NCBI RefSeq assembly: GCF_030013595.1
Contig: NZ_CP122768.1
Direction: 5' to 3' (one strand)
DNA length: 64,000 nt
Source: Escherichia coli
GTDB lineage: Bacteria > Pseudomonadota > Gammaproteobacteria > Enterobacterales > Enterobacteriaceae
In this document: piece by piece, positions 1 through 63,239 of the stretch
Position numbering within the stretch: position 1 is the first letter of the stretch
Layout of the letters: every line of letters begins with the position of its first letter
Position numbers and translations under genes: made by a program
The notes under the pieces: generated by a model
What the model was told of the DNA's origin: nothing
Database searches by the model: none
The model's input: only the letters and a program-made list of their open reading frames with translations

Positions 1-424
1 ATCACTCTCCGGTGCCGGAGGGTGGCTTGGTACGGTCGGCGGATGGATTTCGGGGGCAGTGGCAAACGCAAAAGGTGGTGTTTACACATCGGCAAATCTG
101 AGTGCTTACAGTAACACTATTGTGGATACACCGACGTATTTTGCTTTTGCGAAAGGTGCCGGGCTGATGGGTGAGGCCGGGCCTGAAGCAATCATGCCAC
201 TGACACGGGCAGCGGACGGCTCTCTTGGGGTCAGGGCCATTGGAAATGTGAATGGTGGCGGTGGATTTGTTTATTCTCCCGTGTATCACATCAGCATTCA
301 GAATCAAGGGAGCAATGGCGAGATAGATGCGCGCTCAGCCAGGGGACTGGTGGATCTGATCGACAGCAGGGTTGTGTCAATTATGCAGTCATCGCGTCGG
401 GATGGAGGATTGTACAGTGCCTGA
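1..424 (+). CDS. H: Tail tape measure protein, C-terminal fragment (lambda H-like); 5' end outside window
   Basis: Open frame runs from window edge (frame of pos 2) to TGA at 422-424; position immediately upstream of M/L/K/I/J as in lambda. Confidence 0.6.
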   Translation, partial: SLSGAGGWLGTVGGWISGAVANAKGGVYTSANLSAYSNTIVDTPTYFAFAKGAGLMGEAGPEAIMPLTRAADGSLGVRAIGNVNGGGGFVYSPVYHISIQNQGSNGEIDARSARGLVDLIDSRVVSIMQSSRRDGGLYSA

Positions 425-758
425 GCCTGAAGTTTTTAACTGGATCCCCCGTGAGGGGATGGAGACGACACGAAAGCCATCAGTTATTACGGTAAAGTTT
501 GGTGACGGATATGAACAGCGACGGGCTGGTGGCCTGAATGCGGATCTGAAAACGTTTAAACCGGTATTTCGTGTCACAGATGAATATTCCCGTGCCGCGC
601 TGGACAGTTTTTTATCCCGTCATGCCGGGATTCGTGCTTTTTTGTGGCGTCCGCCAAAACACAACAGGACTGTCCGGGTTGTCTGCAGGGAGTGGAGCAT
701 TTCGGATAATGCCATGTATACCGATTTTAACTGTACCTTTGAAGAGGTCACTCACTGA
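417..758 (+). CDS. M: Minor tail protein M
   Basis: Translation contains the FGDGYxQR...GLNAxLKT...FLWxPP pattern of lambda M; GTG at 417 preceded by GGAGGA (404-409) at ideal spacing, so likely start rather than ORF-track start 372. Confidence 0.7.
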   Translation: MPEPEVFNWIPREGMETTRKPSVITVKFGDGYEQRRAGGLNADLKTFKPVFRVTDEYSRAALDSFLSRHAGIRAFLWRPPKHNRTVRVVCREWSISDNAMYTDFNCTFEEVTH

Positions 759-1456
759 TGCAGGGTATACAGCAGGAAACACTCAATGAGTGCACTAAAA
801 CGGAGCAATCCGCGCTGGTCGTGCTCTGGGAAATTGATCTGACAGAGGTCGGCGGAGAACGTTATTTCTTCTGTAATGAGCAGAACGAAAAAGGTGAACC
901 AGTCACCTGGCAGGGGCGGCAGTATCAGGCTTATCCCATTCAGGGAAGCGGATTTGAGATGAACGGCAAAGGAGCCAGTGCAAGGCCAACGCTTAAAGTC
1001 TCTAATCTGTACGGCATGGTCACCGGGATGGCGGAAGATTTGCAGAGTCTGGTCGGCGGAACGGTGGTCCGGCGTAAGGTTTACGCCCGTTTTCTGGATG
1101 CGGTGAACTTCGTCAACGGAAACAGCGAAGCCGATCCGGAGCAGGAGATTATCAGCCGCTGGCGCATCGAGCAGTGTAGCAATTTAACAGCGGTAAGTGC
1201 CTCCTTTGTACTGTCCACGCCGACGGAAACGGATGGCGCTGTTTTTCCGGGACGTATCATGCTGGCCAACACCTGCACCTGGACCTATCGCGGTGATGAG
1301 TGCGGTTATCACGGTCCGGCGGTCGCGGATGAATATGACCAGCCGACGTCCGATATCACGAAGGATAAATGCAGCAAATGCCTGAGCGGTTGTAAGTTCC
1401 GCAATAACGTCGGCAACTTTGGTGGCTTCCTTTCCATTAACAAACTTTCGCAGTAA
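758..1456 (+). CDS. L: Minor tail protein L
   Basis: 232 aa, near-identical in length and sequence to lambda L as recalled (MQ..QETLNEC...CSKCLSGCKFRNNVGNFGGFLSINKLSQ); start overlaps M stop (TGATG). Confidence 0.9.
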   Translation: MQGIQQETLNECTKTEQSALVVLWEIDLTEVGGERYFFCNEQNEKGEPVTWQGRQYQAYPIQGSGFEMNGKGASARPTLKVSNLYGMVTGMAEDLQSLVGGTVVRRKVYARFLDAVNFVNGNSEADPEQEIISRWRIEQCSNLTAVSASFVLSTPTETDGAVFPGRIMLANTCTWTYRGDECGYHGPAVADEYDQPTSDITKDKCSKCLSGCKFRNNVGNFGGFLSINKLSQ

Positions 1457-1461
1457 ATCCC

Positions 1462-2205
1462 ATGACACAGACAGAATCAGCGATTCTGGCGCACGCCCGG
1501 CGATGTGCGCCAGCGGAGTCGTGCGGCTTCGTGGTAAGCACGCCGGAGGGGGAAAGATATTTCCCCTGCGTGAATATCTCCGGTGAGCCGGAGGCGTATT
1601 TCCGTATGTCGCCGGAAGACTGGCTGCAGGCAGAAATGCAGGGTGAGATTGTGGCGCTGGTCCACAGCCACCCCGGTGGTCTGCCCTGGCTGAGTGAGGC
1701 CGACCGGCGGCTGCAGGTGCAGAGTGATTTGCCGTGGTGGCTGGTTTGCCGGGGGGCGATTCACAAGTTCCGCTGTGTGCCACATCTTTCCGGGCGGCGC
1801 TTTGAGCACGGGGTGACGGACTGTTACACGCTGTTCCGGGATGCTTACCATCTGGCGGGGATTGAGATGCCGGATTTTCATCGCGAGGATGACTGGTGGC
1901 GTCACGGTCAGAATCTCTATCTGGATAATCTGGAGGCCACAGGGCTGTATCAGGTGCCGTTGTCAGCGGCGCAGCCGGGCGATGTGCTGCTGTGCTGTTT
2001 TGGTTCATCGGTGCCGAATCATGCCGCCATTTACTGTGGTGACAGCGAGCTGCTGCACCATATTCCTGAACAACTGAGCAAACGAGAGAGGTACACCGAC
2101 AAATGGCAGCGACGCACACACTCCCTCTGGCGTCACCGGGCATGGCACGCATCTGCCTTTACGGGGATTTGCAACGATTTGGCCGCCGCATCGACCTTCG
2201 AGTGA
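1462..2205 (+). CDS. K: Tail tip assembly protein K (JAMM/MPN plus NlpC/P60 domains)
   Basis: Lambda K-like sequence; JAMM motif HSHPGGLPWLSEAD (HxHx7Sx2D) and NlpC/P60-type Cys (GVTDCYTLF) and His (NHAAIY) visible; 3' end overlaps I. Confidence 0.85.
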   Translation: MTQTESAILAHARRCAPAESCGFVVSTPEGERYFPCVNISGEPEAYFRMSPEDWLQAEMQGEIVALVHSHPGGLPWLSEADRRLQVQSDLPWWLVCRGAIHKFRCVPHLSGRRFEHGVTDCYTLFRDAYHLAGIEMPDFHREDDWWRHGQNLYLDNLEATGLYQVPLSAAQPGDVLLCCFGSSVPNHAAIYCGDSELLHHIPEQLSKRERYTDKWQRRTHSLWRHRAWHASAFTGICNDLAAASTFE

Positions 2206-2750
2206 AAACGGGGTCCGAAGCCATCCGGGCGCTGGCCATGCAGAACCCGGCGTTTCGTCAGAAACTGAGCGACGGCTGGTACCAGGTACGCATTGCCGGG
2301 CGTGATGCAGGTGAAACCGAATTGTCTGCCCGTCTTAATGAGCCGCTGGCAAATGGTGCCGTGATCCACATCGTGCCGCGTCTGGCGGGAGCTAAAAGTG
2401 GCGGTGTTTTTCAGGCAGTGCTGGGTGCGGCGCTGATTGCGGTGGCATGGTGGAACCCTGTGGGCTGGCTGGGTGCCGCGGCTGTATCGGGCATGTATGC
2501 GGCAGGGGCCAGTATGATCCTGGGCGGTGTTGCACAGATGCTGGCCCCTAAACCCAAAACTCCCCGCACACAGACAACGGATAACGGCAAACAGAACACC
2601 TATTTTTCTTCACTGGATAATATGGTTGCCCAGGGCAATGTTCTGCCCGTTCTGTACGGTGAAATGCGCGTGGGATCACGTGTGGTATCTCAGGAGATCA
2701 GCACAGCAGATGAAGGTGATGGTGGTCAGGTTGTGGTGATTGGTCGCTGA
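2103..2750 (+). CDS. I: Tail assembly protein I
   Basis: N-terminus MAATHTLPLASPGMARICLYGDLQRFGRRIDLRVKTG and C-terminus ...VVSQEISTADEGDGGQVVVIGR match lambda I as recalled; overlaps K 3' end. Confidence 0.85.
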   Translation: MAATHTLPLASPGMARICLYGDLQRFGRRIDLRVKTGSEAIRALAMQNPAFRQKLSDGWYQVRIAGRDAGETELSARLNEPLANGAVIHIVPRLAGAKSGGVFQAVLGAALIAVAWWNPVGWLGAAAVSGMYAAGASMILGGVAQMLAPKPKTPRTQTTDNGKQNTYFSSLDNMVAQGNVLPVLYGEMRVGSRVVSQEISTADEGDGGQVVVIGR

Positions 2751-2770
2751 TGCAAAATGTTTTATGTGAA

Positions 2771-2796
2771 ACCGCCTGCGGGCGGTTTTGTCGTTT
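2771..2796 (+). terminator. Hairpin plus T-tract (ACCGCC-TGCG-GGCGGT-TTTGTCGTTT) between I and J; terminator-like element inside the late tail operon
   Basis: Inverted repeat followed by T-rich run read directly from sequence. Confidence 0.3.
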
Positions 2797-2807
2797 CTGG
2801 AGCGTGA

Positions 2808-6209
<3,402 letters not shown>

Positions 6210-6227
6210 ATTTTATAATCCATAACG

Positions 6228-6251
6228 GGCGTCAGAAATGACGCCTTTTTT
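6228..6251 (+). terminator. Intrinsic terminator downstream of J (GGCGTCA-GAAA-TGACGCC + T6)
   Basis: Perfect 7-bp stem, 4-nt loop, followed by TTTTTT. Confidence 0.55.
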
Positions 6252-6275
6252 ATTGCAGAAAAGCGAGAGGTAATT

Positions 6276-6875
6276 ATGCGTAAACTTTATGCCGCCATTT
6301 TGTCCGCAGCCATTTGTCTGGCCGTATCCGGTGCGCCTGCATGGGCGTCTGAGCAGCAGGCCACGCTGAGCGTGGGGTATCTTCATGCCCGGACGAACGT
6401 TCCCGGCAGTGATGATCTGAACGGGATTAACGTGAAATACCGTTATGAGTTTACGGACACACTGGGGATGGTGACGTCATTCAGCTATGCAGGAGACAAG
6501 AATCGCCAGCTGACCCATTACAGCGATACCCGCTGGCATGAAGATTCCGTTCGTAACCGCTGGTTCAGCGTAATGGCGGGGCCGTCTGTGCGCGTGAATG
6601 AATGGTTCAGCGCGTATGCGATGGCGGGTGTGGCTTACAGCCGTGTGTCGACTTTCTCCGGGGATTATCTCCGCGTAACTGACAACAAGGGGAAAACGCA
6701 CGACGTGCTGACCGGAAGTGATGACGGTCGCCACAGCAACACGTCTCTGGCGTGGGGAGCTGGCGTGCAGTTTAACCCGACCGAATCCGTGGCCATTGAT
6801 ATTGCTTATGAAGGCTCCGGCAGTGGCGACTGGCGCACTGACGGTTTCATCGTGGGTGTCGGTTATAAGTTCTGA
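6276..6875 (+). CDS. lom: Outer membrane protein Lom (Ail/Lom/PagC family beta-barrel), prophage moron
   Basis: 199 aa with signal peptide (MRKLYAAILSAAICLAVSGAPAWA) and C-terminal ...GFIVGVGYKF; matches lambda Lom as recalled; flanked by terminators. Confidence 0.85.
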   Translation: MRKLYAAILSAAICLAVSGAPAWASEQQATLSVGYLHARTNVPGSDDLNGINVKYRYEFTDTLGMVTSFSYAGDKNRQLTHYSDTRWHEDSVRNRWFSVMAGPSVRVNEWFSAYAMAGVAYSRVSTFSGDYLRVTDNKGKTHDVLTGSDDGRHSNTSLAWGAGVQFNPTESVAIDIAYEGSGSGDWRTDGFIVGVGYKF

Positions 6876-6901
6876 TTAGCCAGGTAACACAGTGTTATGA
6901 C

Positions 6902-6929
6902 AGCCCGCCGGTTCAGGCGGGCTTTTTTG
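6902..6929 (+). terminator. Intrinsic terminator downstream of lom (AGCCCGCC-GGTTCA-GGCGGGCT + T6)
   Basis: 8-bp perfect stem followed by TTTTTTGT. Confidence 0.55.
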
Positions 6930-6939
6930 TGGGGTGAAT

Positions 6940-9900
6940 ATGGCAGTAAAGATTTCAGGTGTACTGAAAGACGGCACAGGAAAACCGGTACAGAACTGCA
7001 CAATCCAGCTGAAAGCAAAACGTAACAGCACCACGGTGGTGGTGAACACGCTGGCCTCAGAAAATCCGGATGAAGCCGGGCGTTACAGCATGGACGTTGA
7101 GTACGGTCAGTACAGCGTTATTCTGTTGGTGGAAGGATTCCCGCCGTCACATGCCGGGACCATCACCGTGTATGAAGATTCCCGACCCGGTACGCTGAAT
7201 GATTTTCTCGGTGCCATGACGGAGGATGATGCCCGTCCGGAGGCACTGCGCCGTTTTGAACTGATGGTGGAAGAGGTGGCGCGTAACGCGTCCGCGGTGG
7301 CACAGAACACGGCAGCCGCGAAGAAGTCAGCCAGCGATGCCGGCACATCAGCCCGTGAGGCGGCAACCCATGCGACTGATGCTGCAGGCTCAGCACGCGC
7401 AGCCAGCACGTCAGCCGGACAGGCCGCGTCGTCGGCTCAGTCAGCGTCTTCCAGCGCAGGAACGGCATCAACAAAGGCCACTGAAGCGGAAAAAAGTGCT
7501 GCCGCTGCAGAGTCCTCAAAAAGCGCGGCGGCCACCAGTGCCGGTGCGGCGAAAACGTCAGAAACGAATGCCGCAGCGTCACAACAATCAGCAGCCACTT
7601 CTGCATCCACCGCGACTACGAAAGCGTCAGAAGCTGCCACCTCAGCCCGGGATGCGGCGGCCTCAAAAGAGGCAGCGAAATCATCAGAAACGAACGCATC
7701 CTCGAGCGCCAGTAGCGCAGCTTCCTCGGCAACGGCGGCAGGAAATTCCGCGAAGGCGGCAAAAACGTCAGAGACGAACGCCAGGTCTTCTGAAACGGCA
7801 GCGGGACAGAGCGCCTCGGCTGCGGCAGGCTCAAAAACAGCGGCTGCATCATCTGCCAGTGCAGCGTCAACAAGTGCCGGGCAGGCCTCAGCCAGTGCCA
7901 CCGCCGCCGGAAAATCGGCAGAAAGCGCCGCATCGTCTGCTTCAACAGCCACAACGAAGGCTGGCGAAGCCACTGAACAGGCCAGCGCAGCAGCGAGGTC
8001 TGCTTCCGCAGCGAAGACATCCGAAACGAACGCGAAAGCGTCGGAAACCAGCGCAGAATCCTCAAAAACGGCAGCCGCATCGTCCGCCAGTTCGGCAGTG
8101 TCATCGGCATCATCTGCGTCTGCTTCAAAAGATGAGGCGACCAGACAGGCGTCAGCAGCGAAGGGCAGCGCCACGACGGCATCCACGAAGGCGACAGAGG
8201 CAGCTGGCAGTGCGAGGGCAGCAGCTCAGAGCAAAAGTACGGCGGAATCTGCAGCAACGCGCGCTGAGACAGCGGCAAAACGGGCAGAGGATATTGCATC
8301 CGCCGTGGCGCTTGAGGATGCGAGCACGACGAAAAAGGGGATAGTACAGCTCAGCAGTGCGACCAACAGTACGTCTGAAACGCTGGCGGCAACGCCAAAG
8401 GCAGTAAAATCAGCCTATGACAATGCAGAGAAACGTCTGCAGAAAGACCAGAACGGCGCTGATATACCCGATAAGGGACGCTTCCTGAACAACATTAACG
8501 CGGTCAGTAAAACAGACTTTGCTGATAAGCGTGGTATGCGTTATGTGCGGGTTAACGCTCCTGCAGGTGCAACATCTGGAAAATATTACCCTGTTGTTGT
8601 TATGCGTTCTGCTGGCTCAGTAAGCGAACTGGCATCAAGGGTCATTATCACCACGGCAACGCGAACCGCAGGCGATCCGATGAATAACTGCGAGTTTAAC
8701 GGGTTTGTTATGCCTGGTGGCTGGACTGACAGGGGGCGTTATGCTTATGGAATGTTCTGGCAATATCAAAACAATGAACGAGCCATCCACTCAATAATGA
8801 TGAGTAATAAGGGCGATGATTTGCGCTCTGTGTTCTATGTTGATGGTGCTGCTTTCCCTGTTTTTGCGTTTATTGAAGATGGCCTGTCAATATCCGCACC
8901 TGGTGCTGATCTCGTTGTTAATGATACGACCTATAAGTTTGGGGCAACAAATCCAGCGACGGAATGTATCGCGGCGGACGTTATCCTTGATTTTAAGAGT
9001 GGCCGTGGTTTTTATGAGTCCCATTCGTTAATCGTTAACGATAACTTGTCGTGCAAAAAACTTTTTGCCACAGACGAAATTGTAGCGCGTGGTGGTAATC
9101 AGATTCGAATGATAGGTGGGGAGTATGGTGCATTATGGCGTAATGATGGCGCTAAAACTTACCTGCTGCTTACCAATCAAGGTGATGTTTATGGTGGCTG
9201 GAATACATTAAGACCGTTTGCTATTGATAACGCAACCGGCGAACTGGTTATTGGAACCAAACTGTCCGCAAGTCTGAACGGTAATGCATTAACAGCAACA
9301 AAGCTGCAAACGCCAAGACTGGTTTCTGGGGTTGAGTTTGATGGTTCCAGAGATATTACTTTAACCGCTGCGCATGTTGCTGCTTTTGCCAGAAGAGCAA
9401 CGGATACGTATGCCGATGCGGATGGGGGCGTTCCCTGGAATGCCGAATCAGGCGCTTACAATGTCACCCGCTCTGGCAACAGCTATATTCTGGTTAACTT
9501 CTATACCGGAGTCGGAAGTTGCCGGACATTGCAGATGAAGGCGCATTACAGAAATGGAGGTCTGTTCTACCGTTCCTCAAGAGATGGCTATGGTTTTGAG
9601 GAAGACTGGGCAGAAGTTTATACCTCGAAAAATCTTCCACCAGAAAGCTACCCAGTCGGCGCACCAATCCCGTGGCCATCAGATACCGTTCCGTCTGGTT
9701 ATGCCCTGATGCAGGGGCAGACTTTTGACAAATCTGCTTACCCGAAACTTGCAGCCGCTTATCCGTCAGGCGTGATCCCTGATATGCGTGGCTGGACGAT
9801 TAAGGGCAAACCTGCCAGTGGTCGGGCCGTATTGTCTCAGGAACAGGACGGCATTAAATCGCACACCCACAGCGCCAGCGTATCCAGTACGGATTTGGGG

Positions 9901-10293
9901 ACGAAAACCACATCGTCGTTTGATTACGGCACTAAATCCACGAATAACACCGGGGCGCATACGCACAGTGTGAGCGGTACAGCCGCAAGTGCCGGAAACC
10001 ATACTCATAGTGTCACAGGCGCATCAGCAGTCAGCCAGTGGTCACAAAATGGGTCAGTACATAAGGTAGTGTCTGCGGCCAGTGTGAATACAAGTGCTGC
10101 AGGAGCACACACTCATAGTGTCAGCGGCACAGCTGCATCTGCAGGTGCTCACGCACATACTGTCGGTATTGGTGCTCATACGCACTCTGTTGCGATTGGC
10201 TCACATGGACACACTATCACCGTTAACGCTGCTGGTAACGCGGAAAACACCGTCAAAAACATCGCATTTAACTACATTGTGAGGCTTGCATAA
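6940..10293 (+). CDS. stf: Side tail fibre protein (Stf family), ~1117 aa
   Basis: N-terminus [24 protein letters not shown] and C-terminus ...[31 protein letters not shown] match lambda Stf as recalled; ATG at 6940 rather than ORF-track GTG at 6934; contains A/S/T-rich repeat block and HxH repeats. Confidence 0.85.
7261..8341 (+). repeat. Degenerate tandem coding repeat (Ala/Ser/Thr-rich, recurring AAKTSETNA / SAAxSASxATTKAxEA units) inside stf
   Basis: Motif KTSETNA or KSSETNA recurs at least four times in the translated ORF; low-complexity A/S/T composition over ~360 aa. Confidence 0.6.
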
Positions 10294-10877
10294 TGGCATT
10301 CAGAATGAGTGAACAACCACGGACCATAAAAATTTATAATCTGCTGGCCGGAACTAATGAATTTATTGGTGAAGGTGATGCATATATTCCGCCTCATACA
10401 GGTCTGCCAGCAAACAGTACCGATATTGCACCGCCAGATATTCCGGCTGACTTTGTGGCTGTTTTCAACAGTGATGAGGCATCGTGGCATCTCGTTGAAG
10501 ACCATCGGGGTAAAACAGTTTATGACGTGGCATCAGGGGACGCGTTATTTATTTCTGAACTCGGTCCGTTACCGGAAAATGTTACCTGGTTATCGCCGGA
10601 AGGGGAATATCAGAAGTGGAACGGCACAGCCTGGGTGAAAGATGCAGAAGCAGAAAAACTATTCCGGATCCGGGAAGCGGAAGAAACAAAAAACAGCTTG
10701 ATGCAGGTAGCCAGTGAGCATATAGCGCCGCTTCAGGATGCTGTAGATCTGGAGATCGCAACGGAGGAAGAAAACTCGTTGCTGGAAGCCTGGAAGAAGT
10801 ATCGGGTGTTGCTGAACCGTGTTGATACATCAACTGCACCTGATATTGAGTGGCCGGAAGAACCAGACACAATGTAA
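10293..10877 (+). CDS. tfa: Tail fibre assembly protein Tfa
   Basis: 194 aa; [44 protein letters not shown]... matches lambda Tfa as recalled; start overlaps stf stop. Confidence 0.9.
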
Positions 10878-11034
10878 GCGAAAAAGAAAAACCGCAGACA
10901 CGACGTATGCAGGACGTGCTGCGGTTGGCTGGTGAACTTTCGATAGTGCGAGTATTGAATGATTTCCAGCCGTTATTGATTTTATATAACTGTAGTGGAG
11001 TTATTCAACACACAGGCAAAACGGAATAATCTGA

Positions 11035-11073
11035 GAAAAAAGCGTGCTTCGCCAATCAGGGGGGCGAAGCACG
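11035..11073 (-). terminator. Terminator-like hairpin (CGTGCTTCGCC...GGCGAAGCACG) with T-tract on the minus strand, in the tfa-ssrA junction
   Basis: 11-bp inverted repeat preceded on + strand by A6 (T6 on minus strand after the stem). Confidence 0.4.
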
Positions 11074-11243
11074 TCTGAATGACACCTGAAAATTTCCCGT
11101 CCGTTAAGTGTCCGCCCCGAGAGAAGTGGGGAACCATAACACCCTGTCGGGACGCAGAAAGAAACAACACAACTTGCAGGGATATTTCTCGATACTGCGT
11201 CAATGGTGGGGGATGTTAAATTATTACACTTAGTTACAAATAG

Positions 11244-11277
11244 AAAAGCCTCTGACTTCATAAGCAGAGGCTTTTCT
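11244..11277. terminator. Bidirectional terminator-like hairpin (AAAAGCCTCTG-loop-CAGAGGCTTTT) in the tfa-ssrA junction
   Basis: 11-bp inverted repeat flanked by A-run upstream and T-run downstream. Confidence 0.4.
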
Positions 11278-11395
11278 TAAATGCGCGTGCATTTTGCGTG
11301 TATATTTTTGTCTTTTTCTGGTCCGCTCACTGTCTGGTCAGTGTCCATAAGTGACTGTTTTTATAGTCTCTGTCTGGTTGTGGTCCTGTCAAAAG

Positions 11396-11758
11396 TGGTG
11401 GAGCTGGCGGGAGTTGAACCCGCGTCCGAAATTCCTACGTCCTCGGTACTACATGCTTAGTCAGTCTTTACATTCGCTTGCCAGCTGCGGACGGACACGC
11501 CACTAACAAACTAGCCTGATTAAGTTTTAACGCTTCAACCCCAGGCAGGGCTTCCACGCGATCTCTTTTGGGTTTGACCTCTCTTGATCCCCGTCCTAAG
11601 AGCGGAGGCTAGGGAGAGAGGGCTCTAAGCAGGTTATTAAGCTGCTAAAGCGTAGTTTTCGTCGTTTGCGACTATTTTTTGCGGCTTTTTACGAGGCCAA
11701 CCGCCCCTCGGCATGCACCTTGGGTTTCGCAAATCCCGTCGAATCCAGAATCAGCCCC
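11396..11758 (-). ncRNA. ssrA: tmRNA (SsrA, transfer-messenger RNA), 363 nt
   Basis: Reverse complement reads GGGGCTGATTCTGGATTCGACGGGATTTGCGAAACCCAAGGTGCATGCC...GGTTCAACTCCCGCCAGCTCCACCA, i.e. full-length E. coli tmRNA including encoded CCA. Confidence 0.95.
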
Positions 11759-11972
11759 AATGTGTAACGGTAAGTATACCAGATTCATGAGTGCCATGAC
11801 CAGCCTCAATGGCGTTATCGTTAAAGATTTAGCACCCATGTAGCCTGATTTTTATTCGATTAAGCAATGGGATGGCAACATTTGTGTCGGATGTGATAGC
11901 CAATAAGATGTTCATTCGCGCCGCCGGAGAGGGAGGCGCGGTGAGGAACTGGTCAATAATTGGAGTGCAGGT

Positions 11973-12455
11973 TTAACGGTGGGCGTTTTTCATGATACGC
12001 GCTTTATCCACCTGCCATTCGCGCTCTTTGATATCTGAACGTTTATCGTGCTGTTTCTTACCTTTGGCGACGCCGATTTTCACTTTGCACCAGGCATTTT
12101 TCCAGTACAGGGAGAGCGCCACTACGGTATAGCCTTCTCGATTGACGCGACCGTACAATGAGTCCAGTTCGCGCTGGTTGAGAAGTAACTTGCGGGTACG
12201 GGTAGGATCGCACACCACATGCGTGGAGGCCACAGCCATTGGCGTGATGTTAGCGCCAAACAGAAATGCCTCTCCGTCACGCAGAAGGACGTAGCTGTCG
12301 CTGATATTGGCTTTTCCTGCGCGCAGGGATTTAACCTCCCAGCCTTGCAGGGCAAGTCCCGCCTCGAACTCTTCTTCGATAAAGTATTCGTGCCGGGCGC
12401 GCTTGTTAAGCGCGATGGTCGCTGAACCAGGTTTATGTGCTTTTTTCTTCGTCAT
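11973..12455 (-). CDS. smpB: SsrA-binding protein SmpB
   Basis: 160 aa, [45 protein letters not shown]...; adjacent to and co-oriented with ssrA. Confidence 0.95.
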
Positions 12456-12586
12456 AAGCGTCGTGAATCATCGGTAATCTGAAATCGAAAACACCCCATA
12501 TCAATCCTGCGGGGGACAAGGCTCTATCTTAGCATGAACCCGATGTTACCCAGCGCCGGGATAGCGTTTTTTTTACAGCAGGATAA

Positions 12587-29607: not shown

Positions 29608-29630
29608 AGTGTTGCCTTTTTGTTATCAAT

Positions 29631-29660
29631 AAAAAAGGCCCCCCGATTTGGGAGGCCTTA
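29631..29660 (-). terminator. pheA attenuator terminator (minus strand GGCCTCCC-AAATC-GGGGGGCC + T6)
   Basis: GC-rich hairpin followed by T-run on the minus strand between pheL and pheA. Confidence 0.7.
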
Positions 29661-29705
29661 TTGTTCGTCTTCGCATTCTGTTTCACACGACGAAACGCCT
29701 CCCAT

Positions 29706-29753
29706 TCAGGGGAAGGTAAAAAAGAATGCGAAGAAAAACGGTGTGTGTTTCAT
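29706..29753 (-). CDS. pheL: pheA leader peptide PheL (15 aa: [15 protein letters not shown], seven Phe codons)
   Basis: Minus-strand ATG AAA CAC ACA CCG TTT TTC TTC GCA TTC TTT TTT ACC TTC CCC TGA read directly. Confidence 0.85.
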   Translation of the reverse strand: [15 protein letters not shown]

Positions 29754-29809
29754 GTTTGTTTCCTTAAGTGACTTCAGTACAGTACCCGTACTGTTTTCAC
29801 GCTGTCAAC

Positions 29810-34489: not shown

Positions 34490-34551
34490 CCTAAAGAATC
34501 AAGACGATCCGGTACGCGTGATTTTCTTTTCACATTAATCTGGTCAATAAC

Positions 34552-34579
34552 CTTGAATAATTGAGGGATGACCTCATTT
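34552..34579 (+). promoter_or_regulatory. Sigma32 heat-shock promoter of clpB (-35 CTTGAAT, 14-bp spacer, -10 CCTCATTT)
   Basis: Match to sigma32 consensus upstream of clpB. Confidence 0.5.
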
Positions 34580-34618
34580 AATCTCCAGTAGCAACTTTGA
34601 TCCGTTATGGGAGGAGTT

Positions 34619-37192
34619 ATGCGTCTGGATCGTCTTACTAATAAATTCCAGCTTGCTCTTGCCGATGCCCAATCACTTGCACTCGGGCACGACAACCAAT
34701 TTATCGAACCACTTCATTTAATGAGCGCCCTGCTGAATCAGGAAGGGGGGTCGGTTAGTCCTTTATTAACATCCGCTGGCATAAATGCTGGCCAGTTGCG
34801 CACAGATATCAATCAGGCATTAAATCGTTTACCGCAGGTTGAAGGTACTGGTGGTGATGTCCAGCCATCACAGGATCTGGTGCGCGTTCTTAATCTTTGC
34901 GACAAGCTGGCGCAAAAACGTGGTGATAACTTTATCTCGTCAGAACTGTTCGTTCTGGCGGCACTTGAGTCTCGCGGCACGCTGGCCGACATCCTGAAAG
35001 CAGCAGGGGCGACCACCGCCAACATTACTCAAGCGATTGAACAAATGCGTGGAGGTGAAAGCGTGAACGATCAAGGTGCTGAAGACCAACGTCAGGCTTT
35101 GAAAAAATATACCATCGACCTTACCGAACGAGCCGAACAGGGCAAACTCGATCCGGTGATTGGTCGTGATGAAGAAATTCGCCGTACCATTCAGGTGCTG
35201 CAACGTCGTACTAAAAATAACCCAGTACTGATTGGTGAACCCGGCGTCGGTAAAACTGCCATCGTTGAAGGTCTGGCGCAGCGTATTATCAACGGCGAAG
35301 TGCCGGAAGGGTTGAAAGGCCGCCGCGTACTGGCGCTGGATATGGGCGCGCTGGTGGCTGGGGCGAAATATCGCGGTGAGTTTGAAGAACGTTTAAAAGG
35401 CGTGCTTAACGATCTTGCCAAACAGGAAGGCAACGTCATCCTGTTTATCGACGAATTACATACCATGGTCGGCGCGGGTAAAGCCGATGGCGCAATGGAC
35501 GCCGGAAACATGCTGAAACCGGCGCTGGCGCGTGGTGAATTGCACTGCGTAGGTGCCACGACGCTTGACGAATATCGCCAGTACATCGAAAAAGATGCTG
35601 CGCTGGAACGTCGTTTCCAGAAAGTGTTTGTTGCCGAGCCTTCTGTTGAAGACACCATTGCTATTCTGCGTGGCTTAAAAGAACGTTACGAACTGCACCA
35701 CCATGTGCAAATTACTGACCCGGCAATTGTTGCAGCGGCGACGTTGTCTCATCGCTACATTGCTGACCGTCAGCTGCCGGATAAAGCCATCGACCTGATC
35801 GATGAAGCAGCATCCAGCATTCGTATGCAGATTGACTCAAAACCAGAAGAACTCGACCGACTCGATCGTCGTATCATCCAGCTCAAACTGGAACAACAGG
35901 CGTTAATGAAAGAGTCTGATGAAGCCAGTAAAAAACGCCTGGATATGCTCAACGAAGAACTGAGCGACAAAGAACGTCAGTACTCCGAGTTAGAAGAAGA
36001 GTGGAAAGCAGAGAAAGCATCGCTTTCTGGTACACAGACCATTAAAGCGGAACTGGAACAGGCGAAAATCGCTATTGAACAGGCTCGCCGTGTGGGTGAC
36101 CTGGCGCGGATGTCTGAACTGCAATACGGCAAAATCCCGGAACTGGAAAAGCAACTGGAAGCCGCAACGCAGCTCGAAGGCAAAACTATGCGTCTGTTGC
36201 GTAATAAAGTGACCGACGCCGAAATTGCTGAAGTGCTGGCGCGTTGGACGGGGATTCCGGTTTCTCGCATGATGGAAAGCGAGCGCGAAAAACTGCTGCG
36301 TATGGAGCAAGAGCTGCACCATCGCGTTATTGGTCAGAACGAAGCGGTTGATGCGGTATCTAACGCTATTCGTCGTAGCCGCGCAGGGCTTGCTGACCCG
36401 AATCGCCCGATTGGTTCATTCCTGTTCCTCGGCCCAACCGGTGTGGGGAAAACTGAGCTTTGTAAGGCGCTGGCGAACTTTATGTTTGATAGCGACGAGG
36501 CGATGATCCGTATCGATATGTCCGAGTTTATGGAGAAACACTCGGTGTCTCGTCTGGTTGGTGCGCCTCCGGGATATGTCGGTTATGAAGAAGGTGGCTA
36601 CCTGACCGAAGCGGTGCGTCGTCGTCCGTATTCCGTCATCCTGCTGGATGAAGTGGAAAAAGCGCATCCGGATGTCTTCAACATTCTGTTGCAGGTACTG
36701 GATGATGGGCGTCTGACTGACGGGCAGGGGAGAACGGTCGACTTCCGTAATACGGTTGTCATTATGACCTCTAACCTCGGTTCCGATTTGATTCAGGAAC
36801 GCTTCGGTGAACTGGATTATGCGCACATGAAAGAGCTGGTGCTCGGTGTGGTAAGCCATAACTTCCGTCCGGAATTCATTAACCGTATCGATGAAGTGGT
36901 GGTCTTCCATCCGCTGGGTGAACAGCACATTGCGTCGATTGCGCAGATTCAGTTGAAACGTCTGTACAAACGTCTGGAAGAACGTGGTTATGAAATCCAC
37001 ATTTCTGACGAGGCGCTGAAACTGCTGAGCGAGAACGGTTACGATCCGGTCTATGGTGCACGTCCTCTGAAACGTGCAATTCAGCAGCAGATTGAAAACC
37101 CGCTGGCACAGCAAATACTGTCTGGTGAATTGGTTCCGGGTAAAGTGATTCGCCTGGAAGTTAATGAAGACCGGATTGTCGCCGTCCAGTAA
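34619..37192 (+). CDS. clpB: Chaperone ClpB (Hsp100 disaggregase)
   Basis: 857 aa from [18 protein letters not shown]; two AAA+ modules ([16 protein letters not shown]); ATG at 34619 preceded by GGGAGGAG. Confidence 0.95.
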
Positions 37193-37636: not shown

Positions 37637-39178
<1,542 letters not shown>

Positions 39179-39263
39179 CCTTAAAGAAGCGTACTTTGCA
39201 GTGCTCACACAGATTGTCTGATAGAAAGTGAAAAGCAAGGCGTCTTGCGAAGCAGACTGATAC

Positions 39264-39339
39264 GTCCCCTTCGTCTAGAGGCCCAGGACACCGCCCTTTC
39301 ACGGCGGTAACAGGGGTTCGAATCCCCTAGGGGACGCCA
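39264..39339 (+). tRNA. gltW: tRNA-Glu (anticodon UUC) in the 16S-23S spacer
   Basis: GTCCCCTTCGTCTAGAGGCCCAGGACACCGCCCTTTCACGGCGGTAACAGGGGTTCGAATCCCCTAGGGGACGCCA. Confidence 0.95.
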
Positions 39340-39532
39340 CTTGCTGGTTTGTGAGTGAAAGTCACCTGCCTTAATATCTCAAAACTCATCTTCGGGTGAT
39401 GTTTGAGATATTTGCTCTTTAAAAATCTGGATCAAGCTGAAAATTGAAACACTGAACAACGAAAGTTGTTCGTGAGTCTCTCAAATTTTCGCAACACGAT
39501 GATGAATCGAAAGAAACATCTTCGGGTTGTGA

Positions 39533-42437
<2,905 letters not shown>

Positions 42438-42529
42438 ACAACGCCGAAGATGTTTTGGCGGATGAGAGAAGATTTTCAGCCTGATACAGATTAACTCAGA
42501 ACGCAGAAGCGGTCTGATGAAACAGAATT

Positions 42530-42649
42530 TGCCTGGCGGCCTTAGCGCGGTGGTCCCACCTGACCCCATGCCGAACTCAGAAGTGAAACGCCGTAGCGCC
42601 GATGGTAGTGTGGGGTCTCCCCATGCGAGAGTAGGGAACTGCCAGGCAT
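42530..42649 (+). rRNA. rrfG: 5S ribosomal RNA (120 nt)
   Basis: TGCCTGGCGGCCTTAGCGCGGTGGTCCCACCTGACCCCATGCCGAACTCAG...GGAACTGCCAGGCAT. Confidence 0.95.
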
Positions 42650-44658: not shown

Positions 44659-46017
44659 TTACAGGATGCGGCTAATTAATCGGTCGATGCGGATACGGCG
44701 CAAACGGCGGATGAGTTTACGAACCTTCACCGGATAATCGGCAATACTTTGCAGATCGCGATAGTGCTTAACGATGGTGGTATGCTCGCGGATCAGCTCC
44801 AGTTCTTTCTCTCGCTGCGGCGCAAGCTCCAGTTGTGGATCGTGGATCAAAATGGCGTTTTCCAGATCCAGACGCCAGGCGCGCGGGTTCAGGTTATTAC
44901 CGGTGATCAACATCCACTTATCATCAACCCACATCCCTTTCAGGTGATAGGTGTTGTCGTCATCTTTCCATAACCGAACCACTAGCTGGTCAGTATTGAC
45001 GTAATACTGCAAACGGCTCAGGAAACGACGCAGATTGATCTCATAGAGATAAGGCAATGCGCCAATTATCTTGAAAGGTTCATCTTCCGGAATGTAGAAG
45101 TCGTTCGCGGTTTTATCACCAACAATAATTTCGACCTTTTTCCCTTCGCGCAGCAACTGGATAATATTGCGCACAAGGATTGCTGGCAGGTTGAAGTATG
45201 GCGTACAGATGGTTAGTTTCTGCTCGGCACAAGGCATAAGATGGAAAATGGTCTTGTTCAACAGACTCGATTTCCCCAGCCCCACTAGCGGCGTTACGGA
45301 AAGCTGATCGTTGTCGGCATCGCCCTGGAAATGATAAGCGGCATCACGCAGCTCCTGGCGGAACAGACGAATATCGTTCTTGATTTCCGGGCTTTTTGGC
45401 CGATTAACATCATCCAGACGATTAACGCCGCGGCCATTCATAATATTCTGTGTAACCCATTCAAACATAATGTCTGACATCTTACGGTTACGGATCAGAT
45501 GATAACGGTCGTAGCGATATTTATCGTGCTGATGCAGGTAAACATCGTTCAGGCTGGCACCGCTATAAAGTACGCTATCGTCGATGATAAAGCCTTTAAA
45601 GTGCAGAACACCAAGGGCTTCACGGGTATTGATTGGCACGCCATAAACCGGAACATCTACGCCCGGATTTTCCTGCGCCATGCGGCAGTACCAGTCAGCG
45701 TTAGTGTTAGATGCCGCAGCGCCAATGCGTCCACGTTGTGCACGATGCCAGTCGACCAGCACCCGCACATCCAGTTCAGGACGCTGCCTTTTAGCCTCAT
45801 ACAACGCGTTCAGAATGCCTTTGCCACCGTCATCCTGTTCGAGATACAGGGCGACAATGCAAATGCGCTGCTTCGCGCTGGCTATTTTTTCCAGCAGCGT
45901 CTCCCGGAAGTCGGCGGGAGCGTAAAAGAAATCGACATCATCAACTGATTGAGAAATCTTGGGTAGTTGGGCAAGGTGTTGTTGATGTTTATTACGCTTA
46001 AATTTTGACAACATCAC
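44659..46017 (-). CDS. pssA: CDP-diacylglycerol--serine O-phosphatidyltransferase PssA (PLD superfamily)
   Basis: 451 aa, two HKD-like motifs (HFKGFIID, HLKGMWVD). Confidence 0.95.
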   Translation of the reverse strand: MMLSKFKRNKHQQHLAQLPKISQSVDDVDFFYAPADFRETLLEKIASAKQRICIVALYLEQDDGGKGILNALYEAKRQRPELDVRVLVDWHRAQRGRIGAAASNTNADWYCRMAQENPGVDVPVYGVPINTREALGVLHFKGFIIDDSVLYSGASLNDVYLHQHDKYRYDRYHLIRNRKMSDIMFEWVTQNIMNGRGVNRLDDVNRPKSPEIKNDIRLFRQELRDAAYHFQGDADNDQLSVTPLVGLGKSSLLNKTIFHLMPCAEQKLTICTPYFNLPAILVRNIIQLLREGKKVEIIVGDKTANDFYIPEDEPFKIIGALPYLYEINLRRFLSRLQYYVNTDQLVVRLWKDDDNTYHLKGMWVDDKWMLITGNNLNPRAWRLDLENAILIHDPQLELAPQREKELELIREHTTIVKHYRDLQSIADYPVKVRKLIRRLRRIRIDRLISRIL

Positions 46018-46127
46018 AGTGCATTTCTTCTCTGTTCATTGAAGGGTCCTCTGTGCAATGCAGACGACATAAGCGGGCAATAATAACACCAGTCCCGATT
46101 AAGTGGTCAACATTTCCAGTACCTTAC

Positions 46128-59810: not shown

Positions 59811-60766
59811 TGAAGCAACTTTGGTTTGCCATGTCATTAGTGACAGGTAGCCTGTTATTCTCTGCTAACGCCTCGGCCACTCCCGCGTCCGGGGCGTTAT
59901 TACAGCAGATGAACCTGGCCAGTCAGTCACTGAATTACGAGCTGTCATTCATCAGCATCAATAAACAGGGTGTTGAGTCTCTGCGTTATCGACATGCACG
60001 CCTCGATAACCGTCCTCTTGCACAATTGTTGCAAATGGATGGCCCGCGCCGGGAAGTGGTACAGCGCGGCAATGAAATCAGCTATTTTGAACCGGGACTT
60101 GAACCGTTCACGCTTAATGGCGATTACATTGTTGATTCTCTGCCATCGCTCATCTATACCGATTTCAAACGCCTTTCTCCTTACTACGACTTTATCTCCG
60201 TCGGGCGGACGCGTATTGCTGATCGTCTTTGCGAAGTTATTCGCGTGGTTGCCCGAGATGGTACACGCTACAGCTACATCGTGTGGATGGACACCGAATC
60301 GAAATTACCGATGAGGGTTGATCTCCTTGATCGCGATGGTGAAACGCTGGAACAATTTCGCGTGATTGCTTTTAATGTCAATCAGGAAATCAGCAGCAGT
60401 ATGCAGACGCTGGCGAAGGCAAATTTGCCGCCGTTGCTTTCTGTTCCTGTAGGTGAAAAAGCTAAATTCAGCTGGACGCCAACCTGGTTGCCACAGGGTT
60501 TTAGCGAAGTTTCCAGTAGTCGACGTCCGCTACCGACGATGGACAACATGCCTATCGAATCACGTCTCTATTCCGACGGATTATTCAGCTTCTCGGTAAA
60601 CGTTAACCGCGCTACGCCATCGAGCACCGATCAGATGTTGCGCACCGGGCGCAGAACCGTCAGTACAAGCGTACGTGATAACGCCGAAATCACCATTGTC
60701 GGTGAACTGCCGCCGCAAACGGCGAAACGCATTGCCGAGAATATTAAGTTCGGGGCAGCGCAATGA
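59810..60766 (+). CDS. rseB: Sigma-E regulatory protein RseB
   Basis: 318 aa with signal peptide, start overlaps rseA stop. Confidence 0.95.
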   Translation: MKQLWFAMSLVTGSLLFSANASATPASGALLQQMNLASQSLNYELSFISINKQGVESLRYRHARLDNRPLAQLLQMDGPRREVVQRGNEISYFEPGLEPFTLNGDYIVDSLPSLIYTDFKRLSPYYDFISVGRTRIADRLCEVIRVVARDGTRYSYIVWMDTESKLPMRVDLLDRDGETLEQFRVIAFNVNQEISSSMQTLAKANLPPLLSVPVGEKAKFSWTPTWLPQGFSEVSSSRRPLPTMDNMPIESRLYSDGLFSFSVNVNRATPSSTDQMLRTGRRTVSTSVRDNAEITIVGELPPQTAKRIAENIKFGAAQ

Positions 60767-61242
60767 TCAAAGAGTGGGCTACCGTCGTCTCCTGGGAAAA
60801 CGGGCAGGCGCTGGTCAGTTGTGATGTTAAAGCCTCATGCAGCAGCTGCGCTTCACGTGCCGGTTGCGGTAGCCGCGTGTTGAATAAACTTGGCCCGCAA
60901 ACCACGCATACTATTGTCGTACCCTGTGATGAGCCGTTAGTGCCGGGGCAAAAAGTAGAATTAGGAATCGCCGAAGGCAGCCTGCTTAGCTCCGCATTAC
61001 TGGTTTATATGTCGCCGTTGATGGGACTATTCCTCATCGCTTCACTATTTCAGCTACTCTTTGCTTCAGATATTGCAGCATTATGCGGTGCGATTCTCGG
61101 TGGCGTTGGTGGATTCCTGATTGCACGTGGCTGCTCTCGAAAGTTTGCTGCCCGGTCTGAATGGCAACCGATCATCTTAAGCGTGGCATTGCCGCCTGGC
61201 CTTGTGCGATTTGAAACATCTTCGGAAGACGCGAGCCAGTGA
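60763..61242 (+). CDS. rseC: Sigma-E regulatory protein RseC
   Basis: 159 aa, Cys-rich N-terminus and two TM segments; overlaps rseB stop. Confidence 0.95.
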   Translation: MIKEWATVVSWENGQALVSCDVKASCSSCASRAGCGSRVLNKLGPQTTHTIVVPCDEPLVPGQKVELGIAEGSLLSSALLVYMSPLMGLFLIASLFQLLFASDIAALCGAILGGVGGFLIARGCSRKFAARSEWQPIILSVALPPGLVRFETSSEDASQ

Positions 61243-61439
61243 TTTCACTGGCTTTGTTGCATTTTGCATAACAAATGCGAGGACGTTTCCAGATACCACA
61301 ATCCATACGGTATGAACATTTCCTCGCCTCAATGTTGTAGTGTAGAATGCGGCGTTTCTATTAATACAGACGTTAAGCTCAGAACAGCGACTTCTAAAAG
61401 CCTGGTTAACCGGGCATTAAGGCACAATAATCATACTTT

Positions 61440-63239
<1,800 letters not shown>

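Follow-up and report, generated by a model that had tools for sequence, protein, structure and literature searches.

The tail-side junction of a lambda-like prophage at the 3' end of ssrA in Escherichia coli and its place among known ssrA-integrated elements

Introduction

In phage lambda, attP lies between the end of the tail genes and b-region and the 3' end of int; arm sites are found in both of its arms, and on the int strand attP is followed by the terminator tI/sib. The attB of lambda is intergenic (gal-bio), with a 15-bp core. Several integrase subfamilies reportedly target enterobacterial ssrA, the gene for tmRNA, and conserved ssrA terminators are said to occur at the att sites. In elements that use such genes, attP carries a fragment of the target (a tDNA fragment), and integration restores the target gene and leaves a displaced fragment behind (PMC4383910). 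The same paper notes tandem arrays and finds ssrA to be the most enriched target (PMC4383910). In E. coli K-12 the site holds CP4-57, with intA directly after ssrA, as a preliminary description of the DNA studied here had stated. The cryptic Stx1 prophage CP-1639 (AJ304858) is described as integrated in ssrA (Creuzburg et al., 2005, as cited in PMC8065619), and Sp17 of strain Sakai (O157:H7) is annotated as a lambda-like prophage beginning right after ssrA. Two phage genomes represent the free form of such elements: LMessi (PP925823, an Escherichia phage genome record) and phiES15 (JQ780327/NC_018454), a temperate phage of Cronobacter whose record gives it as UV-induced.

The stretch of E. coli DNA analysed here (64,000 nt; the window) carries the tail genes of a lambda-like prophage beside ssrA. 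The preliminary description had drawn attention to this orientation, tail-fibre end rather than integrase end next to the gene, and had offered two alternatives, namely an integrase module at the distal end or a rearranged element. We argue that the junction is of an ordinary, already known kind, whose site and principle have been documented for about twenty years. The 518-bp stretch between the last phage gene and ssrA very probably represents the tail-side junction (attR, in the lambda convention) of a lambda-like prophage inserted by a tyrosine integrase into the 3' end of ssrA.

The tail module and its chromosomal setting

The eight ORFs M-L-K-I-J-lom-stf-tfa stand in the lambda-type tail order, all of them open and matched by Pfam (Table 1), and the annotation of the tail module in the RefSeq genome of strain ETEC1732 agrees with that of the window. 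Among 5426 complete E. coli genomes, the best match for window positions 1-12500 has 96% identity. The J-lom-stf segment (about 2750-10300) differs from that of ETEC1732, otherwise the closest relative, by a net 51 nt in length; no exact 40-mers were common to the two segments at the positions sampled, whereas both flanks are identical or near-identical. The host-range module seems to have undergone a mosaic exchange and, since J-stf of the window departs from the closest relative, recombination has occurred in this prophage lineage. A match to the Rfam family IS009 (213.9 bits, window 10636-10834) lies wholly within the tfa coding sequence; it most likely reflects homology between tfa and the K-12 prophage region behind the family rather than an RNA gene of its own. 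On the other side of ssrA, window positions 12500-64000 are ordinary E. coli chromosome with ratA and recN, a pheL leader (29629-29754), RyfD (34500-34638), an rRNA operon with tRNA-Glu (37637-42647) and an rseC antisense region (60727-61558).

Table 1. Features of the prophage end, the ssrA junction and the distal ends in four related genomes. Positions are those of the window, except where a segment of another genome (L001, L005, L014, L015) is named.
Feature	Position	Strand	Sequence	Basis or remark
Tail module	1..10877	+		upstream of ssrA; starts inside tape-measure gene
M	372-758	+		Pfam Phage_min_tail
L	758-1456	+		Pfam Phage_tail_L
K	1462-2205	+		Pfam Prok-JAB/NLPC_P60
I	2103-2750	+		Pfam Lambda_tail_I
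J	2811-6209	+		Pfam GpJ domains
lom	6276-6875	+		Pfam Ail_Lom
stf	6934-10293	+		Pfam phage_tail_N
tfa, tail-fibre assembly, 194 aa	10293-10877	+		Pfam Caudo_TAP E=3.7e-45
Generic post-tfa spacer, non-coding, 317 nt	10878..11194	.		not ssrA-specific
Hairpin 3, terminator-like	10890..10926	-	followed by UUUUUCUUUUU on minus strand	inverted repeat I11; -19.0 kcal/mol, z=-3.8
73-aa ORF in gap	10982..11203	-		ORF list, >=60 aa
86-aa ORF in gap	11001..11261	-		ORF list, >=60 aa
Hairpin 2, terminator-like	11043..11073	-	followed by CUUUUUUCUC on minus strand	inverted repeat I6, 11/11 complementary; -20.8 kcal/mol, z=-4.9
ssrA-specific attP arm, tail side	about 11213..11395	.		found in 45/5426 genomes
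Hairpin 1, bidirectional	11242..11277	-	AGAAAAGCCUCUG..CAGAGGCUUUUCU	inverted repeat I2, 13/13 complementary; -23.2 kcal/mol, z=-5.3
Candidate arm-type integrase-binding element, 26 nt	11287..11312	.	GTGCATTTTGCGTGTATATTTTTGTC	top-scoring direct repeat in reconstructed attP
att core, last 27 nt of ssrA (T-stem/T-loop through CCA)	11396..11422	-	CGGGTTCAACTCCCGCCAGCTCCACCA	identity block shared with distal repeat and phage attP
ssrA (tmRNA), intact, 363 nt	11396..11758	-		ARAGORN; Rfam RF00023, 292.8 bits
smpB, chromosomal neighbour upstream of ssrA	11973..12455	-		ORF; Pfam SmpB E=1.5e-57
ETEC1732, distal end	L001: 27-bp repeat 6972-6998; integrase 7131-8303			41.4 kb between repeats
WAT, distal end	L005: 27-bp repeat 46074-46100; integrase 44769-45941			44.4 kb between repeats
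E94, distal end	L014: 27-bp repeat 9169-9195; integrase 9328-10500			39.6 kb between repeats
'numer 3', distal end	L015: 27-bp repeat 2209-2235; integrase 2368-3540			46.6 kb between repeats

Two-part structure of the junction

The preliminary description had placed the end of tfa at 10877 and the encoded CCA end of the tmRNA at 11396. Both positions hold, the one by its ORF and Caudo_TAP match and the other by ARAGORN and Rfam, and they enclose a gap of 518 bp (10878-11395). The tmRNA tag read by ARAGORN is ANDENYALAA. The gap had also been described as lacking a convincing ORF, which agrees with what we found: its only ORFs of at least 60 aa are two on the minus strand, of 73 and 86 aa, and a Pfam search of both gave no match.

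Some portion of the junction query is matched in 3130 of the 5426 complete E. coli genomes, and the match is uneven along its length. The tfa-proximal 317 nt recur at 91-97% identity in listed genomes that have no remainder of the junction; they terminate prophages at ompW (L010, L011) and at a tRNA-Ser gene (L012), and the first ~107 nt are common to lambda, HK97, phi80 and mEp460. By these comparisons the spacer is generic lambdoid post-tfa sequence, whatever the integration site. Four pig ETEC genomes have the whole junction (523 nt as searched) at 100% identity, and four further genomes have it at 94-98.5%.

The part next to ssrA is much more restricted. The cognate integrase occurs in 41 of the 5426 genomes, about as many as the 45 that have the tail-side arm, and at least 11 genomes found in both lists have the two on the same relative strand, with 39-48 kb between them. 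The arm is homologous in CP-1639 and in strain 06-00048. It is the equivalent of the P arm of lambda, and integration turns it into a new 3' trailer for ssrA. The possibility that the arm (201 nt as searched) is unique to this strain was rejected, given its presence in the 45 genomes, LMessi and CP-1639. In strain PSS-15 (NZ_AP027709.1), the arm and a 78%-identical integrase are 41.8 kb apart on opposite relative strands, unlike in the other 11 genomes compared, which could be an inversion or a different arrangement. Copies of the ssrA-type arm with a truncated ssrA-like core (about 18-22 nt) were also seen in strains E10 (L007 3001-3210) and A25 (L008 3001-3175), inside prophages that are not at ssrA: one adjoins dinI and prfC, and the other is near nleH and nleF. 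Such copies may be left over from a previous integration module, or they may be secondary att-like sites within the prophages.

The att core and the target gene

According to the preliminary description, no second tmRNA 3' terminus was visible and the att core could not be delimited within the window. The observation stands: CGGGTTCAACTCCCGCCAGCTCCACCA occurs once in the window when up to three mismatches are allowed, because the window ends inside the prophage. The core can nevertheless be set at the last 27 nt of ssrA with the help of relatives and phages. Exact second copies lie at the distal ends of four related prophages (Table 1), the attP of LMessi contains the 27-nt block (L002 2954-2980), and the annotated attP of phiES15 equals its first 26 nt. 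This fixes the prophage boundary, with the core at 11396-11422 and phage-type DNA from 11395. The block, which runs from the T stem to CCA, corresponds to the T-loop or T/acceptor-junction crossover class of PMC4383910; the exact crossover is not placeable within it.

Two features that Islander-type definitions look for (PMC4383910) are present, in that the target gene is complete at one end of the element (ssrA, 11396-11758) and free elements whose attP holds a fragment of that gene are seen in LMessi and phiES15. The components of a phiES15-type module, a core of 26-27 bp equal to the ssrA terminus and homologous arms, are found as well, with the int-side arm seen only in the relatives. The ssrA gene is identical to that of K-12 except for U320C (window 11439). 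This change, C for U at tmRNA position 320, is also the sole difference from ETEC1732, WAT and 'numer 3', is shared with O157:H7 Sakai, and looks like a natural polymorphism. The prophage has left the tmRNA sequence unaltered, and only the 3' trailer and terminator have been replaced by phage DNA.

The distal end in related genomes

Because the int end of this prophage lies outside the window, we infer the distal end for this strain from relatives. It was examined in four independent genomes that carry the junction at 94-100% identity, namely ETEC1732, WAT, E94 and 'numer 3' (Table 1). Each of the four has, at the distal end, the ssrA terminus repeated exactly and in direct orientation, and 132-133 bp from this repeat a tyrosine integrase with the Pfam domains Arm-DNA-bind_2 and Phage_integrase. 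A 69-aa ORF precedes the integrase in ETEC1732, and the annotations of other genomes and of phiES15 name its homologue an excisionase; such an excisionase-like ORF is kept alongside int and the 27-bp repeat in each of the four. A lambdoid early region and head genes (LexA-family repressor, helicase, Q, holins and HK97-type head genes) are present in ETEC1732, WAT and E94. The first of the two alternatives in the preliminary description, an integrase module at the distal end, is thus borne out in four of four relatives, with repeat and int about 40-47 kb from ssrA, and by extension would apply to the strain of the window. An ssrA site with neither a duplicated terminus nor an integrase within prophage length, which had been named as the sign of a remnant or rearranged fragment, was found in none of these four.

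A second integrase lies beyond the distal repeat in three of the four genomes (ETEC1732, E94 and 'numer 3') and points away from the repeat, as K-12 intA does from ssrA; in ETEC1732 it is of P4 type by Pfam (Arm-DNA-bind_3, Phage_int_M). WAT has restriction-modification genes at this place, not a second integrase. As the distal repeat is followed by a P4-type element, the relatives carry a tandem array of ssrA, lambdoid prophage, displaced ssrA terminus and P4-type element. For a synthetic unoccupied site, composed of the P4-type int flank, the core and the ssrA body, contiguous matches are found in 373 genomes, with identities reaching 99.5%. The arrangement of CP4-57 and the P4-type elements is not that of the window, where no integrase lies between ssrA and tfa.

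The relatives differ in cargo. In 'numer 3', a pigeon strain, the prophage (L015 2236-48803) combines the same int, xis, attP and early region with a contractile-tail structural module of sheath, tube and baseplate genes, and genes for the A and B subunits of heat-labile enterotoxin type II lie between the lysis genes. The ETEC1732 prophage contains an ompC-like porin gene and a tRNA-Gly gene (L001 19611-20708 and 22812-22886), and its P4-type neighbour (L001 1-6788) encodes a Psu-like polarity-suppression protein and abuts an IS21-family element.

Hairpins and arm-type repeats

On the minus strand, which is the direction of ssrA transcription, a U-tract follows each of three hairpins in the junction. 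The hairpins were judged by folding; the built-in terminator scan missed all three, probably because their loops exceed its 8-nt limit, and returned only a weak plus-strand site at 11281-11303. Hairpin 1 sits 118 nt downstream of the CCA end of ssrA, and LMessi and CP-1639 have a hairpin at the same position with different stem sequences. Hairpin 2 shows a compensatory change, GTG..CAC to GCG..CGC, in the copy from the tRNA-Ser prophage. Hairpin 3 stands directly outside the tfa stop codon and is nearly invariant (one loop-region substitution) in four copies from different integration sites. Since int reads toward the core on the same strand, hairpin 1 lies downstream of int in the circular phage, at the place of lambda tI/sib; it is probably the terminator of ssrA in the lysogen and a terminator downstream of int in the circular phage.

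Near hairpin 3, the minus strand (window 10880-11008) has a promoter-like site, TTGAAT and TAAAAT with an 18-nt spacer or, alternatively, TATAAA with a 16-nt spacer. A stem-loop at 10927-10971 separates this site from the hairpin, and the predicted transcript would be about 95 nt long. The promoter-like and stem-loop segment is conserved across thousands of E. coli prophage copies.

In the attP reconstructed for this prophage, the top-scoring direct repeat pairs the 26-nt element GTGCATTTTGCGTGTATATTTTTGTC of the tail-side arm with GTGCATTTTACGTACATATTGTTGTC in the int-side arm, which in L001 lies 61 nt past the core. The LMessi attP has both elements as well, and one copy is visible in the int-side arm of phiES15. 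We suggest that these repeats bind the arm domain of the integrase.

The layout invites a broader functional interpretation, which we offer as conjecture and think more doubtful than probable. The junction might act as a functional end-cap whose three terminators, facing ssrA transcription, shield the tail genes from antisense read-through, with hairpin 1 doing double duty and the shared terminator favouring tail-proximal cores. If this were true, the tail genes would be protected from one of the most strongly transcribed genes of the cell, and hairpin 1 would serve the circular phage as a tI/sib-like terminator and, in the lysogen, would terminate ssrA.

Why the tail end adjoins ssrA

Sequence comparison shows that, in the circular phage, attP lies between tfa and the 3' end of int, in the order tfa, generic spacer, tail-side arm of ~180 nt, 27-bp core identical to the ssrA terminus, int-side arm of ~132 nt, and int, which is read in the direction of the core. 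On its ssrA-sense strand, the core runs from the int side to the tail side. Recombination in the core then joins the ssrA body to the tail-side arm, and int and the displaced 27-bp terminus are carried about 40 kb off, to the far end. From the polarity of the core in attP it follows that the tail end is proximal to ssrA and int is at the far end; in P4-type elements, int lies on the opposite side of the core, and for this reason the int of K-12 is next to ssrA. The lambdoid phage may well have entered a site already occupied by a P4/CP4-57-type element, which would have given the present tandem array, and the genome of the window is likely to have the same distal end as the relatives.

The surprise at a tail-proximal orientation that was implied in the preliminary description was therefore unwarranted. 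The apparent anomaly disappears because orientation follows the polarity of the ssrA fragment in attP, as set in the attP of LMessi, and matches that of CP-1639, Sp17 and other lambdoid ssrA prophages. We also considered whether the orientation is a peculiarity of ssrA and rejected this, since the lambdoid prophage at the tRNA-Ser gene puts tfa next to the tRNA 3' end; there, too, a phage-supplied hairpin lies just beyond that end. The locus illustrates cleanly how elements of two unrelated integrase families come to be stacked at ssrA, and matters little beyond annotation.

In this strain the element could be a remnant, its tail end still on ssrA but its int end and distal repeat lost through deletion or disruption, which would make excision impossible. 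Such decay is seen in elements of the same orientation: CP-1639 has IS629 copies and one core copy only, and Sp17 is IS-ridden, with no ssrA-terminus repeat of at least 16 nt found in the Sp17 region retrieved. The distal end of the present prophage is moreover not visible, as the window starts in the tape-measure gene. We consider a remnant improbable, given that all eight tail ORFs in the window are open and that four of four independent genomes with the junction keep int, the xis-like ORF and the exact 27-bp repeat; still, because the int ends of CP-1639 and Sp17 are lost to IS elements, the intactness of this prophage is not asserted. In another reading, resident lambdoid prophages would have recombined homologously or undergone inversion between them, and the tail module would have come to ssrA in this way instead of through site-specific integration of this phage. 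The J-stf segment does differ from that of ETEC1732 between near-identical flanks, and the 317-nt post-tfa spacer, common to prophages at many sites, could serve as a recombination substrate. However, the 183 nt next to ssrA are an attP arm specific to the ssrA-targeting integrase family and are joined to the core as in phage attP, an arm-core junction that illegitimate or homologous rearrangement would not recreate, and we give this origin hardly any credence.

A different question is whether the junction encodes a product of its own, which would be the 73-aa or the 86-aa minus-strand ORF, or a minus-strand small RNA of ~95 nt running from the promoter-like site (about 11008-10979) to the hairpin at 10926-10890. 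The succession of TTGAAT/TAAAAT, a conserved stem-loop and a terminator would fit a small RNA, and the segment is conserved in lambda, HK97 and phi80. Set against this, neither ORF has a Pfam match, and the longer one spans the mosaic boundary and a terminator hairpin. An Rfam scan at E<=1 matched no family inside the gap, PGAP annotates zero features in the corresponding gap of four RefSeq genomes, and in the copy from the tRNA-Ser prophage 11 nt are deleted at the promoter-like -10 region. An encoded product is in our judgement unlikely.

Comparison with known systems

Among described elements at ssrA, CP4-57 of K-12 resembles the present prophage in target gene and 3' terminal region and is likewise co-directional with ssrA. 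It differs in its integrase (Arm-DNA-bind_3 and Phage_int_M), whose gene lies downstream of the core and so next to ssrA, in an annotated ssrA overlap of about 15 nt versus 27, and in not being a tailed-phage genome. CP-1639 is lambdoid, with J, lom and tail-fibre genes adjoining ssrA at its 3' end, an attP arm that shares 78% identity with that of the window and, on the distal side, a remnant element with a CP4-57-type intA. It differs in carrying stx1 and dinI, in disruption by IS629, in the loss of its own integrase and in the single core copy of the record. In Sp17, which has the same orientation, the late end (dinI, an effector locus, a tail-fibre remnant, lysis genes and Q) is proximal to ssrA and the early genes are distal. 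This prophage is heavily degraded and IS-ridden and carries type III effector genes, and its arm is absent among the listed matches of the arm search.

LMessi has an attP layout like the reconstructed one, in which a hairpin-bearing arm, the 27-bp core, the second arm and the 3' end of int are contiguous; the tail-fibre gene lies ~580 bp beyond the first arm, across an annotated hypothetical ORF. The reconstructed attP and LMessi align in one 602-nt match of about 80% identity. LMessi differs in its 37-kb genome, in other cargo and tail-fibre genes, and in a longer identity with ssrA (27 nt, one mismatch, then 7 nt). At the DNA level, the phiES15 integrase and that of the relatives share about 80% identity; as in these, an overlapping excisionase gene is present, the attP of the record, TGGTGGAGCTGGCGGGAGTTGAACCC, is the ssrA terminus, and the int-side arm has a GTGCA..GCGTGCATAT element as in the reconstructed attP. 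Its host belongs to another genus, two extra ORFs lie between attP and int, and its structural genes are different.

The geometry of lambda itself is matched by this module, in that int reads toward the core and the first hairpin stands 118 nt beyond the core on the same strand. The module departs from lambda in the arm-binding domain family of its integrase (PF12167) and in its core, which is the 3' end of an RNA gene. For this last reason, and unlike in lambda, the hairpin also lands downstream of that gene.
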